21,846 nt of DNA from a virus (Duplodnaviria; Heunggongvirae; Uroviricota; Caudoviricetes). How positions within the stretch are numbered: position 1 is the stretch's first letter; the number at the start of each line of letters is the position of its first letter. The notes below the pieces were generated by a model. The model saw only the letters and a list, made by a program, of their open reading frames with translations, was not told where the DNA came from and searched no databases. The stretch lies in the IMG/VR virus record IMGVR_UViG_2778261514_000003. The stretch is one strand, 5' to 3'. Of the stretch, positions 13,644 to 21,800 are shown piece by piece. The translations under genes and the position numbers were made by a program.

Positions 13644-16197
13644 TCTTGTTATTGACCTTAGTCTGGATGCTGTCCGTTTCGATGAGCAGATGAGCCGGGT
13701 AAGGCGTCATTTTTCAGGTCTGGATACCGACGCCAGAAAAACCGCCAGTGCTGTTGAACAGGGCCTGAGCCGCCAGGCGCTGGCTGCACAAAAAGCAGGG
13801 ATTTCCGTCGGGCAGTATAAAGCGGCCATGCGAACCCTGCCCGCACAGTTTACGGATATCGCCACGCAGCTTGCCGGTGGTCAGAATCCCTGGCTGATCC
13901 TGCTGCAACAGGGCGGTCAGGTGAAGGACTCCTTCGGCGGGATGATCCCCATGTTCAGGGGGCTTGCCGGTGCGATCAGCCTGCCGATGGTCGGGGTCAC
14001 CTCGCTGGCGGTGGCGACAGGTGCGCTGGCGTACGCCTGGTACCAGGGGGATTCCACGCTTTCAGAATTTAATAAAACGCTGGTCCTTTCCGGCAATCAG
14101 GCCGGACTGACTGCCGATCGTATGCTGACGCTCTCAAGAGCCGGGCAGGCAGCAGGGCTGACGTTTAACCAGGCGAGAGAGTCACTGGCAGCCCTGGTGA
14201 ATGCCGGTGTGCGTGGTGGTGAACAGTTTGATGCCATTAACCAGAGTGTCGCGCGTTTTGCGTCTGCATCCGGTGTTGAAGTGGACAAGGTTGCAGAGGC
14301 TTTCGGAAAACTGACCACCGACCCGACGTCGGGACTGATGGCGATGGCGCGCCAGTTCCGTAACGTGACGGCAGAGCAGATTGCGTATGTTGCACAACTG
14401 CAGCGTTCCGGAGACGAGGCCGGGGCCTTACAGGCGGCGAACGATATCGCCACGAAAGGCTTTGATGAGCAGACCCGTCGCCTGAAAGAAAACATGGGAA
14501 CACTGGAGACCTGGGCGGATAAAACAGGGAAGGCATTCAAATCGATGTGGGATGCCATTCTGGATATCGGTCGTCCGGAATCCTCAGCGGATATGCTCGC
14601 CAGTGCGCAGAAGGCATTTGATGAGGCGGATAAAAAATGGCAGTGGTACCAGAGCCGGAGCCAGCGCCGCGGTAAAACCTCCTCTTTCCGGGCCAACCTT
14701 CAGGGCGCATGGGATGACCGGGAAAATGCCCGTCTGGGTCTGGCAGCGGCAACGCTGCAGTCGGATATGGAAAAAGCCGGTGAACTGGCGGCAAGGGACA
14801 GGGCTGAGCGTGAGTCGTCACAGCTGAAGTATACCGGAGAGGCGCAGAAGGCGTATGAGCGCCTGCTGACGCCACTGGAGAAATATACCGCCCGGCAGGA
14901 AGAGCTGAATAAGGCCCTGAAAGACGGGAAAATCCTGCAGGCGGATTACAACACGCTGATGGCGTCGGCAAAAAAGGATTATGAGTCGACGCAGAAAAAG
15001 CCGTCCGGTGTGAAGGTGTCTGCCGGTGAGCGCCAGGAAGACCGGGCGCATGCAGCCATGCTGGCGCTTGAAACCGAGCTCAGGACGCTGGAAAAACACA
15101 GCGGTGTGAATGAGAAAATCAGCCAGCAGCGCCGGGATTTATGGGAAGCGGAAAATCAGTATGTGGTCCTGAAAGAGGCCGCCACGAAACGGCAGTTATC
15201 TGAGCAGGAAAAATCCCTGCTGGCCCATGAGAAAGAGACGCTGGAGTACAAACGCCAGCTGGCTGACCTGGGCGACAAGGTTGAACACCAGAAACGGCTG
15301 AATGAGCTGGCACAGCAGGCGGCGCGGTTTGAACAGCAGCAGAGCGCGAAGCAGGCCGCCATCAGCGCAAAAGCCCGCGGCCTCACCGACCGTCAGGCGC
15401 AGCGGGAGTCGGAAGAGCAGCGCCTTCGTGACGTGTACGGTGATAATCCGGATGCGCTGGCGAAGGCCACATCTGCACTGAAGAACACCTGGTCTGCGGA
15501 GGAGCAGCTTCGTGGAAGCTGGATGGCGGGTCTGAAGTCCGGCTGGGGCGAGTGGGCGGAAAGTGCGACGGACAGTTTTTCGCAGGTTAAAAGCGCGGCC
15601 ACGCAGACCTTTGACGGTATTGCACAGAATATGGCAGCGATGCTGACCGGCAGCGAACAGAACTGGCGTGGTTTCACCCGTTCCGTGCTCTCCATGCTGA
15701 CAGAGATTTTTCTGAAGCAGGCGATGGTGGGGATTGTCGGGCGTATCGGCAGCGCCATTGGTGGTGCTTTCGGTGGTGGCGCATCCGCTTCCACGGGGAC
15801 GGCCATTCAGGCTGCGGCGGCGAACTTCCATTTCGCGACCGGGGGATTTACGGGAACCGGTGGCAAATATGAGCCAGCGGGGATTGTCCACCGCGGGGAG
15901 TTTGTCTTCACGAAGGAGGCAACCAGCCGGATTGGTGTCGGGAACCTGTACCGCCTGATGCGGGGCTATGCGGAAGGGGGGTATGTGGGTGCTGCCGGAA
16001 GTCCGGCGCAGATGCGGCGGGCGGAAGGTATTAATTTTAATCAGAACAATCACGTGGTGATTCAGAACGACGGCATCAACGGACAGGCCGGGCCGCAGCT
16101 GATGAAAGCGGTGTATGAGATGGCCCGTAAAGGTGCGCAGGATGAGCTCCGGCTGCAGTTGCGTGATGGCGGTCTGTTATCGGGGAGCGGGCGATGA
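13624..16197 (+). CDS. H: Tail tape measure protein H
   Basis: 857 aa. Colinear similarity to lambda gpH (853 aa) throughout, including the Gly-rich C-terminal region. Confidence 0.95.
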   Translation: MSQPVGDLVIDLSLDAVRFDEQMSRVRRHFSGLDTDARKTASAVEQGLSRQALAAQKAGISVGQYKAAMRTLPAQFTDIATQLAGGQNPWLILLQQGGQVKDSFGGMIPMFRGLAGAISLPMVGVTSLAVATGALAYAWYQGDSTLSEFNKTLVLSGNQAGLTADRMLTLSRAGQAAGLTFNQARESLAALVNAGVRGGEQFDAINQSVARFASASGVEVDKVAEAFGKLTTDPTSGLMAMARQFRNVTAEQIAYVAQLQRSGDEAGALQAANDIATKGFDEQTRRLKENMGTLETWADKTGKAFKSMWDAILDIGRPESSADMLASAQKAFDEADKKWQWYQSRSQRRGKTSSFRANLQGAWDDRENARLGLAAATLQSDMEKAGELAARDRAERESSQLKYTGEAQKAYERLLTPLEKYTARQEELNKALKDGKILQADYNTLMASAKKDYESTQKKPSGVKVSAGERQEDRAHAAMLALETELRTLEKHSGVNEKISQQRRDLWEAENQYVVLKEAATKRQLSEQEKSLLAHEKETLEYKRQLADLGDKVEHQKRLNELAQQAARFEQQQSAKQAAISAKARGLTDRQAQRESEEQRLRDVYGDNPDALAKATSALKNTWSAEEQLRGSWMAGLKSGWGEWAESATDSFSQVKSAATQTFDGIAQNMAAMLTGSEQNWRGFTRSVLSMLTEIFLKQAMVGIVGRIGSAIGGAFGGGASASTGTAIQAAAANFHFATGGFTGTGGKYEPAGIVHRGEFVFTKEATSRIGVGNLYRLMRGYAEGGYVGAAGSPAQMRRAEGINFNQNNHVVIQNDGINGQAGPQLMKAVYEMARKGAQDELRLQLRDGGLLSGSGR

Positions 16198-17231: not shown

Positions 17232-17975
17232 ATGACACAGACTGAATCAGCGATTCTGGCACATGCCCGGCGGTGTGCGCCTGCGGAGTCGTGCGGCTTC
17301 GTGATAAGCACGCCGGAGGGGGAGCGGTATATCCCTTGTGTGAATATTTCCGCAGAGCCGGAGGCGTATTTTCGTATCGCACCGGAAGACTGGCTGCGGG
17401 CAGAGATGCAGGGTGAGATTGTGGCGCTGGTCCACAGTCATCCCGGTGGTCTGCCCTGGCTGAGTGAGGCAGACCGGCGACTGCAGATAAAAAGTGCCCT
17501 GCCCTGGTGGCTGGTCTGCCGGGGTGACATTCACAAATTCCGCTGCGTTCCGCACCTGACCGGACGGCGCTTTGCGCACGGGGTGACGGACTGTTACACG
17601 CTGTTCCGGGATGCATACCATCTGGCGGGGACTGAAATGCCGGATTTTCACCGCGAGGATGAGTGGTGGCGCAACGGCCAGAACCTGTACCTGGACAATA
17701 TGGAGGCCACGGGCTTTTACCGGGTGCCCCTGTCCTCTGCACAGGCGGGCGATATTCTGCTGTGCTGCTTTGGCGCATCGGTGGCCAACCATGCCGCCAT
17801 TTACTGCGGCAACGGTGAACTGCTTCACCATCTGCCTGAACAACTGAGTAAACGGGAGAGGTATTCCGAAAAATGGCAACGACGAACGCATTCAGTCTGG
17901 CGTCACCGCCACTGGCACGCATCTGCCTTCACGGGGATTTACAACGATTTGGCCGCCGCCTCAGCCTGTATGTGA
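17232..17975 (+). CDS. K: Tail tip assembly protein K (JAB/MPN metalloprotease-like motif plus NlpC/P60-like region)
   Basis: Start at ATG 17232 (MTQTESAILAHARRCAPAESCGFV), matching the lambda gpK N-terminus; the ORF-track upstream extension is rejected. Contains an HSHPGG...SEAD JAMM-like motif. Confidence 0.9.
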   Translation: MTQTESAILAHARRCAPAESCGFVISTPEGERYIPCVNISAEPEAYFRIAPEDWLRAEMQGEIVALVHSHPGGLPWLSEADRRLQIKSALPWWLVCRGDIHKFRCVPHLTGRRFAHGVTDCYTLFRDAYHLAGTEMPDFHREDEWWRNGQNLYLDNMEATGFYRVPLSSAQAGDILLCCFGASVANHAAIYCGNGELLHHLPEQLSKRERYSEKWQRRTHSVWRHRHWHASAFTGIYNDLAAASACM

Positions 17976-18553
17976 ACACGGCAGCGGAAGCCATCCGCGC
18001 ACTGTCGATGCAGGTGCCGGGCTTTCGCCGTCAGATGAACGAAGGCTGGTACCAGATACGTATTGCCGGTGAGGACACGGCACCGGAGGCGGTGTATGCC
18101 CGCCTTCACGAACAGCTGGGTGAGGGAACGGTCATCCACATTGTGCCGCGACTGGCCGGTGCCGGAAAGGGCGGACTGCAGATTGTGCTGGGGGCGGCGG
18201 CCATCGTGGGGTCGTTCTTCACGGCCGGAGCCACGATGGCGTTATGGGGTTCAGCCCTGGCAGCCGGTGGTTTTTCTGCCACCACGATGCTGTTTTCACT
18301 GGGTGCCAGCATGATTCTGGGCGGTGTGGCCCAGATGCTGGCCCCGAAGGCAAAAACACCGGATTACCGCGCAACGGATAACGGCAGACAGAACACGTAC
18401 TTTTCCTCGCTGGATAACATGATTGCCCAGGGGAACCCGATGCCGGTGCCTTACGGTGAAATGCTGGTTGGTTCACGACGGATATCCCAGGACATCAGCA
18501 CCCGTGATGAAGGCGGTGACGGGAAAGTGGTGGTTATCGGACGGCAGGGGTAA
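17873..18553 (+). CDS. I: Tail assembly protein I
   Basis: 226 aa. Start overlaps the 3' end of K as in lambda. Similarity to lambda gpI (ARICL.GDLQRFGRR...GWYQ.RIAG...IVLGAAAI.GSFFTAGAT...LFSLGASM.LGGVAQMLAPKA.TP...TDNG.QNTYFSSLDNM.AQGN). Confidence 0.92.
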   Translation: MATTNAFSLASPPLARICLHGDLQRFGRRLSLYVNTAAEAIRALSMQVPGFRRQMNEGWYQIRIAGEDTAPEAVYARLHEQLGEGTVIHIVPRLAGAGKGGLQIVLGAAAIVGSFFTAGATMALWGSALAAGGFSATTMLFSLGASMILGGVAQMLAPKAKTPDYRATDNGRQNTYFSSLDNMIAQGNPMPVPYGEMLVGSRRISQDISTRDEGGDGKVVVIGRQG

Positions 18554-18594
18554 AAAGAATAAAAAAATCCCGCAGTGATCGCGGAGCTGCGGGA
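18551..18594 (-). terminator. Rho-independent terminator-like hairpin oriented on the minus strand, immediately after the I stop
   Basis: 8-bp stem TCCCGCAG / CTGCGGGA (18568-18575 / 18587-18594). On the minus strand it is followed by a T-rich run (reverse complement of AAAAAGAATAAAAAAA, 18552-18567); on the plus strand it is not followed by Ts. Confidence 0.45.
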
Positions 18595-18605
18595 GATTCA
18601 GACAA

Positions 18606-18731
18606 ATGAAGATTAGTGTTAAGGAGTTGTTTTTTATGTCACGGCAAAAAAACACTAACGCAGCGAAATTATCAGCGCCACAGTCAGTTTGTGAAAATGT
18701 GAAGATATTCAGAATTTTTATTCCGTCATGA
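18606..18731 (+). CDS. Very small hypothetical ORF, 31-41 aa (…MSRQKNTNAAKLSAPQSVCENVKIFRIFIPS); coding status uncertain
   Basis: In-frame ATGs at 18606 and 18636; the latter is preceded by AAGGAG at 18621-18626. Followed directly by a + strand terminator. AT-rich insert with no counterpart in the short lambda I-J spacer. Confidence 0.2.
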   Translation: MKISVKELFFMSRQKNTNAAKLSAPQSVCENVKIFRIFIPS

Positions 18732-18733
18732 TG

Positions 18734-18765
18734 CAGGCACTCTCCGGGGTGCCTGTTGTTTTTAT
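18734..18765 (+). terminator. Rho-independent terminator-like hairpin on the + strand just upstream of J
   Basis: 7-bp stem CAGGCAC / GTGCCTG (18734-18740 / 18749-18755), 8-nt loop, followed by TTGTTTTTAT. Confidence 0.5.
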
Positions 18766-18806
18766 ACATCAACAGTGTCCGGCAGCGGACGATGAAGGGG
18801 GATTCC

Positions 18807-21800
18807 GTGGGCAAAGGCGGCGGCAAGGCGCACACACCGCGTGAGGCGAAGGATAATCTCAAATCCACGCAGATGATGAGCGTGATTGATGCCATCGGTG
18901 AGGGACCGGTGGAAGGCCCGGTGAAGGGACTGCAGAGTATTCTGGTGAACAAAACCCCGCTTACGGACACGGACGGTAATCCCGTGATACACGGTGTGAC
19001 CGCCGTCTGGCGTGCCGGGGAGCAGGAGCAGACACCGCCGGAAGGCTTTGAGTCCTCCGGGGCGGAAACCGCACTGGGCGTGGAGGTGACGAAGGCAAAG
19101 CCGGTGACGCGCACCATCACGTCAGCGAACATTGACCGTCTGCGGGTGACCTTCGGGGTGCAGTCACTGGTGGAGACCACCTCAAAGGGTGACCGTAACC
19201 CGACGTCTGTCCGCCTGCTGATTCAGCTTGAGCGTGGTGGTAAATGGATGACGGAAAAGGATGTCACCATTAACGGCAAGACCACCTCGCAGTTCCTGGC
19301 GTCGGTGATTCTGGATAATCTGCCGCCCCGGCCCTTTAACATCCGGATGGTCAGGGAGACGGCGGACAGCACCACGGACCAGCTGCAGAATAAGACGCTC
19401 TGGTCGTCATACACCGAAATCATCGATGTGAAACAGTGCTACCCGAACACGGCGATTGTGGGGCTGCAGGTGGATGCGGAGCAGTTCGGTGGCCAGCAGC
19501 TGACGGTGAACTACCATATCCGTGGTCGCATCATCCAGGTGCCGTCAAACTATGACCCGGAAAAACGCACCTACAGCGGTATCTGGGACGGGAGTCTGAA
19601 ACCGGCATACAGCAATAACCCGGCCTGGTGCCTGTGGGACATGCTGACCCACCCGCGCTACGGGATGGGAAAACGCCTGGGGGCCGCGGATGTGGACAAG
19701 TGGGCACTGTATGCCATCGGGCAGTACTGCGACCAGACGGTCCCGGATGGTTTCGGAGGCACAGAGCCGCGGATGACCTTCAATGCGTACCTGGCACAAC
19801 AGCGTAAGGCATGGGACGTGCTCAGTGATTTCTGCTCGGCGATGCGCTGTATGCCGGTATGGAACGGCCAGACGCTGACGTTCGTTCAGGACCGCCCGTC
19901 GGATGTGGTGTGGCCGTACACCAACAGCGATGTGGTGGTGGATGATAACGGCGTGGGGTTCCGCTACAGCTTCAGTGCCCTGAAGGACCGGCACACGGCG
20001 GTGGAGGTGAATTACACCGACCCGCAGAACGGCTGGCAGACCTCCACGGAACTGGTGGAAGACCCGGAAGCCATACTGCGCTACGGACGCAACCTGCTGA
20101 AGATGGACGCGTTCGGCTGTACCAGCCGCGGTCAGGCCCACCGTGCCGGGCTGTGGGTGATAAAGACCGAACTGCTGGAAACGCAGACGGTGGATTTCAC
20201 GCTCGGGTCACAGGGGCTGCGGCACACACCCGGTGACATCATTGAAATCTGTGATAACGACTATGCCGGGACCCTGACCGGCGGACGTATCCTGTCCATC
20301 GATGCCGCCAGCCGTACCCTGACGCTGGACCGTGAGGTGACACTGCCTGAGACAGGGACATCGACGGTGAACCTGATTAACGGCAGCGGTAAGCCGGTGC
20401 GCGTGGACATCACTGCACAACCGGCCCCTGACCGGATACAGGTCAGCGTCCTGCCGGATGGCGTGGAGGCATACGGGGTATGGGGACTCTCCCTGCCGTC
20501 ACTGCGTCGTCGCCTGTTCCGCTGTGTTTCCATCCGGGAAAACACGGACGGCACTTTTGCCATCACGGCAGTGCAGCACGTACCGGAAAAAGAGGCCATC
20601 GTGGATAACGGGGCCCGCTTTGAGCCGCAGTCAGGCACCCTGAACAGCGTCATTCCTCCGGCAGTGCAGCACCTCACGGTGGAGGTGAGCGCGGCTGACA
20701 GTCAGTATCTGGCGCTGGCGAAATGGGACACGCCGAGGGTGGTGAAGGGCGTGCGCTTCAGTCTGCGCCTGACCAGTGGAAGCGGTGAGAACAGCCGCCT
20801 GCTGACCACCGCCATCACTGCCGATACGGAGCACCGTTTCAGTGGCCTGCCTCTCGGGGAATACACCCTGACGGTCAGGGCGATTAACAGCTATGGTCAG
20901 CAGGGCGAACCCGCCACCACCACGTTCCGGATTAACGCACCGGCAGCGCCTGCCGGTGTTGAACTGACGCCGGGGTATTTTCAGATAACGGCGGTACCGC
21001 GTCTTGCGGTGTATGACCCGACGGTGCAGTTTGAGTTCTGGTTTTCGGAGGCAAAAATTGCAGACGCCGCACAGGTGGAAACCTCTGCCCGTTATCTGGG
21101 GACCGGCAGTCAGTGGAGTGTCTCCGGTCCGCACATTAAGCCCGGAAAGGATTTCTGGTTTTATGTACGCAGCGTTAACCTGGTGGGGAAATCTGCTTTT
21201 GTTGAAGCCAGTGGACGGGCCAGCAATGATGCAGAAGGGTATCTGGGGCTGTTTCGGGAAAAAATAGGAAAACTGCATCTGGCTCAGGGGCTGTGGGAGC
21301 TGATAGACAACAGCCAGCTTGCGGATGAGATGGCGGAGATGAAGACCACCATCACCGAAACCCGCAATGAAATCACACAGACGGTCAGTAAAACGCTGGA
21401 GGACCAGAGCGCCACCATACAGCAGATACAGCGCGTGCAGAAGGACACAAATGATGACCTTGCTGCACTTTACATGCTGAAGGTACAGAAAACAAAAAAT
21501 GGCATACCCTATGTTGCCGGTATTGGAGCGGGGATTGAGGATACTGATGGCCAGCCCCTGAGCAACATACTGCTGCTGGCTGACCGTATTGCGATGATTA
21601 ACCCGGAGGACGGCAACACCACGCCGTTATTTGTGGCGCAGGGGAATCAGTTGTTCATGAACGATGTGTTCCTGAAGCGGCTGTTTGCGGTGAGTATCAC
21701 CTCGTCCGGCAATCCCCCGACGTTTTCCCTGACGCCGGAGGGCAGGCTGACCGCAAGAAATGCTGATATCAGCGGTAACGTGAATGCGAATTCCGGGACG

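Follow-up and report, generated by a model that had tools for sequence, protein, structure and literature searches.

The I–J spacer of a lambdoid prophage of Escherichia coli very probably carries a variant copy of the small RNA gene pasB

The spacer between the tail genes I and J of a lambdoid prophage was identified, with a probability of about 0.9, as a variant copy of pasB, a moron-like insert encoding a regulatory small RNA (sRNA) in the orientation opposite to the tail genes. The identification is based on sequence identity, synteny, the terminator and the conservation of the promoter. An earlier note had already drawn attention to this spacer; the finding is real but already explained, as it concerns a published, named and validated sRNA gene which was not recognised at the time.

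Identification of the spacer as a pasB locus

The window, i.e. the whole stretch of 21,846 nucleotides that was analysed, corresponds to the late region of a lambdoid prophage. An identical copy is present in E. coli STEC2018-607 (NZ_CP075697.1), where the prophage is integrated beside ompW, yciE and trp. Gene I, the product of which gives a Pfam match to Lambda_tail_I, ends with a TAA stop codon at positions 18551–18553, and gene J, with a match to the GpJ FNIII-A domain, starts with GTG at position 18807. The spacer between them measures 253 bp, while that of lambda measures 60 bp, and its GC content is 43.5% compared to about 60% for I and J. It carries no annotation in RefSeq. Owing to this low GC content the spacer reads as an insert. 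The four elements listed in the earlier note, namely a minus-strand terminator, a micro-ORF, an inverted repeat and a plus-strand terminator, were all found where it had placed them (Table 1). Its description of the spacer as an AT-rich, moron-like insert with a promoter and a terminator of its own was also borne out by the GC content, a sigma-70 match that predicts the promoter, and the terminator.

Some features of the surrounding genes are also of note. The longest ORF of gene I encodes 226 aa from position 17873 and overlaps K by about 100 nt (window positions ~17873–17975). RefSeq places the start of I at window position 17972 (582 bp), while older annotations have the long version of the gene (681 bp in E2348C_1436). 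Between the lysis and the terminase genes, a frameshifted pseudogene of a Rha family regulator is annotated in RefSeq (window positions ~2132–2670).

PasB (E2348CN_0006) was described in prophage PP6 of the enteropathogenic E. coli (EPEC) O127:H6 strain E2348/69 (Pearl Mizrahi et al., 2021, PMC8550237). Table S6 of that study locates it at NC_011601.1 1466343–1466261 on the minus strand, as an RNA of 83 nt between E2348C_1436 and E2348C_1437, the 5' end being estimated from read coverage and band size. The RNA was seen both by Northern blot and by RIL-seq, and its stability in E2348/69 was Hfq-dependent, the level of pasB being reduced by log2 6.8 and 2.4 in the hfq mutant (PMC8550237). The baseMean of pasB was 482 in the activating and 1082 in the non-activating condition, while the flanking genes I and J reached only 5 and 15 (PMC8550237); these low values for I and J indicate that PasB is expressed on its own in the lysogen. 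In the 37 RIL-seq interactions reported, PasB was nearly always the second RNA of the chimeras, as is typical of an sRNA (PMC8550237). Its behaviour in EPEC is that of an sRNA acting in trans and bound by Hfq. More recently, 1,362 bacterial genomes were surveyed for Pas RNAs (Zhu, Shabalina and Storz, 2026, bioRxiv 10.64898/2026.05.13.724894). This survey yielded 1,158 PasB matches in complete bacterial genomes, placed PasB within a structural operon of the phage and proposed a seed just upstream of its terminator. The same survey named NC_049945 among three RefSeq phages which collectively carry Pas matches. The sequence of NC_049945 matches the window spacer, here too between the genes for I and J.

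The 23-nt probe used to detect PasB on Northern blots, AATCCCGCAGTGATCGCGGAGCT, has a single, exact counterpart in the plus strand of the window (positions 18566–18588), and matched none of 100 shuffled versions of the window. As the probe matches the plus strand, the RNA that it detects lies on the minus strand. This agrees with one of the products considered in the earlier note, a small RNA antisense to the late operon. The exact probe match at this place also argues that the minus-strand terminator did not arise by chance. The coordinates of PasB in E2348/69 fall between the genes for a tail assembly protein and gpJ, and the E2348/69 spacer (240 bp) aligns with the window spacer from end to end, with 212 identities in 260 columns of a global alignment. 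The spacers of VT1-Sakai (Sp15) and of phage PhiR12_1 likewise align over their entire length. In the 3' part of PasB, 68 of the 74 aligned positions are identical to E2348/69 (91.9%), and the first 12 nt of the published RNA are divergent. The window thereby shows a locus situated between I and J of a lambdoid prophage, antisense to them and homologous to the 83-nt RNA of E2348/69, including the probe target.

Both copies end 6–8 nt past the stop codon of I and are antisense to the late operon. They have in common the terminator stem, the loop, the U7 tail and the exact probe match, as well as the position of the predicted promoter, the CRP-like block and a plus-strand hairpin in front of J. 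They differ in the 5' part (GCCGUGACAUAAAAAA against GCCCGAGUAACAAAAA), in a 3-nt insertion before the terminator, in three substitutions within the AACACUAAU segment and in the -10 box, which is GATAAT in the window instead of TATAAT.

Covariance models did not point to any other family. With Rfam, no match reached the gathering thresholds in the whole window, and the region 18450–18900 gave chance-level matches only, with E-values of at least 1.3. The prophage sRNA families (AgvB, AsxR, Esr41, STnc100, IsrG and others) stayed below their gathering thresholds; PasB itself has no Rfam family. A hit to GcvB on the minus strand (11.7 bits for a threshold of 42, E = 4) was dismissed as chance level. 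AgvB and AsxR of EHEC (Tree et al., 2014, PMC4104026; RF02702, RF02703) resemble PasB in being short, prophage-encoded and Hfq-bound RNAs that are expressed in the lysogen from moron-like inserts and that carry ARN motifs. Unlike PasB, they are located downstream of PR' near the stx/lysis region and not in the tail operon, they measure 51–60 nt and they have no sequence similarity to it. An identity with either of them was rejected on the ground of this location and of the missing Rfam match in the window.

Predicted transcript, terminator and promoter of pasB

The features of the spacer are compiled in Table 1.

Table 1. Position of the features of the I–J spacer (coordinates of the window).
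Feature	Position	Strand	Remarks
pasB sRNA gene	18561–18661	-	Predicted primary transcript of ~101 nt; 5' end deduced from the -10 box only
Equivalent of the 83-nt species of E2348/69	~18561–18646	-	Published 5' end at ~18646
PasB intrinsic terminator	18561–18594	-	Stem CCCGCAG/CUGCGGG, 11-nt loop, U7 at 18567–18561
Candidate seed block UAAUCUUC (window copy)	18608–18615	-	Most conserved single-stranded block, just 5' of the terminator
Inverted repeat TTAGTGTT / AACACTAA	18613–18620 / 18651–18658	- (as possible RNA stem)	Exact over 8 bp, 30 nt between the arms
CUCCUU and preceding (AAN)3 run	18621–18634	-	A positions kept in 27/27 variants
Predicted sigma-70 promoter of pasB	18668–18695	-	-35 TTCACA (18695–18690), 16-bp spacer, -10 GATAAT (18673–18668); 10/12 consensus matches
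CRP-like palindrome AAATGTGA-N6-TCAGAA	18695–18716		Centred on 18705.5, roughly at -44.5 relative to the predicted start
Micro-ORF of 41 aa (31 aa if read from the ATG at 18636)	18606–18731	+	On the strand opposite to PasB and its promoter; not considered a gene
Plus-strand intrinsic terminator/hairpin	18733–18765	+	In front of the J ribosome-binding site; stem 18733–18756, then TGTTTTTATA

An RIL-seq sRNA is expected to end in an intrinsic terminator followed by a U-tract of at least four residues, and the predicted RNA ends in a GC-rich stem of 7–8 bp followed by U7. The terminator scan reported positions 18585–18569 plus ATTTTTTTAT, and the full arms of 8 bp lie at 18568–18575 and 18587–18594 (the stem is also given as 18593–18569). 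Among 27 distinct variants of the RNA, the 7-bp stem was invariant and the loop varied in length and sequence. The U7 tail is likely to serve as the proximal-face site of Hfq.

Upstream of the terminator, AUCUU was invariant in the same 27 variants, and the block at 18608–18615 has a majority fraction of 0.97; AUCUU is the likely seed of PasB. In the (AAN)3 run (18626–18634, minus strand), a possible motif for the distal face of Hfq, the N positions were substituted and only the A positions were retained. The remainder of the RNA body is variable among relatives.

In the primary transcript, the inverted repeat could plausibly serve as a stem at the 5' end. By a rough estimate, chance would yield about 0.2 such 8-bp repeats in a spacer this long, so that the repeat is weak evidence when taken alone. 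The MFE and centroid structures predicted for the 101-nt RNA both contain it as a 9-bp stem, in which the predicted 5' end pairs with the segment upstream of the seed. Across variants, 79.5% of the cells compared were paired and two pairs were doubly changed, with shuffle controls being marginal. In other sequence classes the RNA folds differently and the 5' end is paired elsewhere. RNAalifold recovered the invariant terminator as the only structure common to the 27 variants and indicated no covariation; fold z-scores were modest (-2.1 and -1.7).

The transcription start predicted from the -10 box, about 7 nt downstream of it and near position 18661, corresponds to a primary RNA of 101 nt for the window copy and of 98 nt for E2348/69, versus the published 83 nt. 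The published 5' end maps at about 18646, just past a U7 run. From these positions we infer that the 83-nt species of EPEC would be either a form of the ~100-nt RNA trimmed at its 5' end or an approximate, rounded size estimate.

The predicted promoter of the window lies in the same place as that of E2348/69, which has 11/12 consensus matches and a -10 box TATAAT, both being consensus matches only. The -10 box was compared in 66 loci, where TATAAT (42 loci), TATCAT (11), AATAAT (8), GATAAT (4) and ATAATT (1) were found. The A at the second and the T at the sixth position were kept in 65 of these loci, and in the locus with ATAATT the box seems to be displaced by 1 nt, probably owing to an indel. 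An alternative promoter for pasB, picked by eye in the conserved block, was abandoned since its -10 box is not conserved in two sequence classes.

CRP recognises the consensus TGTGA-N6-TCACA and, at class II promoters, is centred at about -41.5. The palindrome adjoining the -35 box of pasB shares 9 of the 10 core bases with a CRP site as well as the AAA and TT flanks, and its centre lies 3 bp away from the class II position. One occurrence of the core pattern was counted in the window, for 0.13 expected. In all 66 related loci without sodC the half-sites are kept and the N6 alone varies (AGATAT, AGAAAT, AGAGTT), while the DNA from the palindrome to the -10 box is much more divergent. Read from the sequence, the palindrome would represent the footprint of a protein-binding site, with CRP as a hypothetical factor. 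The EPEC data show more PasB in the condition in which the level of Spot 42 is reduced about 5-fold. As CRP represses spf, a rise of PasB where Spot 42 falls would fit activation by CRP. The 2026 preprint (bioRxiv 10.64898/2026.05.13.724894) makes no mention of CRP or of a promoter, and neither the CRP-like palindrome nor a sodC gene at the same site is described in the PasB papers.

The plus strand: micro-ORF and hairpin in front of J

A micro-protein of 31–41 aa, translated on the plus strand from an AAGGAG ribosome-binding site with a message ending at the plus-strand terminator, had been put forward in the earlier note as another possible product. The ORF and the terminator downstream of it both exist, as does the AAGGAG motif (18621–18626), which precedes the ATG at 18636 by 9 nt, and one phage record carries an annotated hypothetical protein of 32 aa at this place. 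Moreover, three sequence classes, among them Sp15 (76% identical at the DNA level), retain an ATG and a full-length frame of 39–41 aa, with a 6-nt indel that keeps the frame. Against these observations, the start codon is lost in 20 of the 41 distinct spacers, the first codon being ACG or ACA, and a second ATG is present in few classes only. The length of the ORF varies between 15–17, 22, 31–32 and 39–41 aa, which is due to indels in T-runs and A-runs and to a stop codon created by the -10 box TATAAT of pasB. Pairs with the full-length frame gave pN/pS values of 0.39–0.91 and differences spread evenly over the codon positions; the ORF had no Pfam or PHROG match. A conserved start codon, frame and length together with purifying selection, as expected of a protein-coding moron, were not seen. 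The AAGGAG motif is complementary to the CUCCUU of PasB and differs among relatives (AAGGAA, AGGGAG, ATGGAG, AGAGAG, AGATAA). No plus-strand promoter was predicted in three homologous spacers (window, E2348/69 and Sp15), and the conserved blocks beneath the ORF, i.e. the seed, the -10 box and the CRP-like site, are all accounted for by pasB. A micro-protein was considered very unlikely, and the micro-ORF was judged to be a by-product of the strand antisense to PasB.

The plus-strand hairpin in front of J is conserved in its own right. Across 8 distinct variants, 98.8% of the cells compared were paired, including one double change from C-G to U-A. Three of the pairs show G.U or U.G wobbles that would correspond to C.A or A.C mismatches on the minus strand, which argues that the hairpin is selected as plus-strand RNA. 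The 60-nt spacer of lambda (L089:746–805; lambda 15445–15504) also contains a plus-strand hairpin followed by the U-run UUUUGUCAUUU (-21 kcal/mol, z = -2.8), which was revealed by folding and was not flagged by a simple terminator scan. The two hairpins are alike in being GC-rich, in their orientation, in the U-run and in their location just upstream of the J ribosome-binding site. They have no sequence similarity, and lambda differs from the window by its short spacer and by having no minus-strand gene. The proposal that this terminator closes a gene-plus-terminator unit was not supported, given the lack of a predicted plus-strand promoter in the three spacers and the analogous hairpin already present in lambda. 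The hairpin is probably an ancestral feature of the I–J junction and not part of the insert or the end of a moron gene. PasB does not overlap the ribosome-binding site of J, which lies about 130 nt from its predicted 5' end. Within J, a minus-strand hairpin resembling a terminator was also observed at 18956–18973 with GTTTTGTT, and has a counterpart in E2348/69 (L003 2146–2163); it may simply reflect conserved coding sequence.

The presence of two terminators in convergent orientation, and of a hairpin at the same junction in lambda, would also be expected if the spacer were merely a pair of back-to-back terminators insulating I from J without any gene product. However, the homologous locus of E2348/69 gives rise to an abundant, Hfq-dependent RNA on Northern blots, and a pure insulator would offer no reason for the conservation of a -10 box, a seed block and a CRP-like site. 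This explanation was found to be the least probable of all.

A plus-strand RNA could also act on PasB itself. The RNA in question would be the late transcript itself or a separate antisense RNA with its 3' end at 18765; paired perfectly with PasB, it would act as a sponge or be cleaved by RNase III, and would link PasB activity to prophage induction or uncouple the expression of I and J. Any plus-strand transcript across 18561–18661 is by construction fully complementary to PasB, and the selection of the hairpin as plus-strand RNA is in line with such a role. On the other hand, the three spacers have no predicted plus-strand promoter, I and J show hardly any expression in the lysogen, and E2348C_1436 and E2348C_1437 are absent among the RIL-seq interactions in the available part of Table S3 (supplementary file 5), where their intergenic region accordingly has no entry. 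Such a function was deemed improbable; it adds to the explanation by PasB and does not replace it.

Variation at the I–J junction and significance of pasB

Scanning IMG/VR with protein I returned 80 loci with I proteins of 97–100% identity. Together with the window and other loci, an I–J spacer could be measured in 84 loci, representing 41 distinct spacers. The comparison of spacers among related prophages, as suggested in the earlier note, showed that the spacer is indeed variable; the terminator stem of PasB and the plus-strand hairpin are conserved, and the micro-ORF is not. The spacers fall into classes of 235–260, 295, ~342 and 851 bp. The spacers with a PasB module diverge just beyond position 18724, so that the likely layout, judged by this comparison, is an inserted minus-strand module of about 170 bp (18554–18724) followed by a lambda-like junction of 80 bp with the plus-strand hairpin (18725–18806).

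In the 851-bp class, which accounts for 18 of the 84 loci (L030:2179–3029; L010, L011 and L007 among others), the spacer contains a minus-strand gene for a Cu,Zn superoxide dismutase, sodC, annotated as such in Stx2_EH2201. In this class, sodC is fused directly upstream of the PasB-like body and the -10 box, -35 box and palindrome of pasB are replaced. A PasB-like RNA could be made there only as a 3' UTR of sodC or from another promoter. The sodC moron at the I–J junction of Stx2_EH2201 is comparable to pasB in its insertion point, minus-strand orientation and low GC content; in contrast, the cargo of the window is the RNA gene alone, without sodC. The sodCI gene of Gifsy-2 is only a distant coding homologue of the sodC found at this junction. 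As far as can be read from the spacer sequences, the I–J junction is a cargo site. Among the remaining classes, the ~342-bp spacers (L044, L015, L060 and similar ones) keep the PasB module and have another right arm, with the hairpin AAAACCCCGGTATC..GATACCGGGGTTT and T-runs on both strands, and the 295-bp spacer (L067) derives from a deletion between two GAAAGAAA repeats.

Sequences related to the 101-nt region were detected in 1,723 of 5,426 complete E. coli genomes, mostly at 80–90% identity. The exact variant of the window is rare and was represented by 9 records of at least 99% identity. The 101-nt query matched three places in NZ_CP075697.1, and the genome that harbours the window has probably three PasB-like copies in different prophages. 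A scan of genome contigs with protein I for a spread beyond E. coli delivered only four loci, three of which are probable contaminants. These three (L004, L006 and L007), labelled Streptomyces flavalbus, Parendozoicomonas haliclonae and a Clostridiales MAG, encode I proteins of 92–100% identity, and the PasB spacer is also present on L004 and L007; they probably result from contamination of the assemblies with E. coli DNA.

Taken together with the data from EPEC, the following mode of action is proposed for the copy in the window. Transcription of pasB would start near 18661 from the predicted sigma-70 promoter and would end at the intrinsic terminator right after the stop codon of I, so that the primary RNA would measure about 100 nt. 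As judged from the homologous copy of EPEC, PasB would be expressed in the lysogen, in which the tail genes stay silent. By the same analogy, it would be stabilised by Hfq via its terminator and U-tail, and would pair in trans with mRNAs of the host and of accessory elements, AUCUU being the likely seed. The plus-strand hairpin would stop RNA polymerase lacking the Q modification before it reaches J. As a more speculative extension, pasB might be under catabolite control of the CRP type through the palindrome beside its -35 box, and, as the gene is antisense within the late operon, induction might flood the cell with a perfect complement of PasB, two ideas that the PasB papers do not raise, turning the I–J junction into a switch by which either the PasB regulon is shut off or the late mRNA is cut between I and J; we regard this scenario as rather unlikely.

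The recognition of the spacer as pasB has consequences beyond this prophage. PasB-like sequences occur in about one third of complete E. coli genomes, with neither RefSeq annotation nor an Rfam family, and for this reason genome scans will keep rediscovering the spacer as an oddity. Naming it correctly averts the annotation of a false micro-protein, of which one phage record already holds an example. Finally, the conserved palindrome close to the promoter, the AUCUU block and the tandem of sodC and PasB offer handles on the regulation and the targets of PasB.
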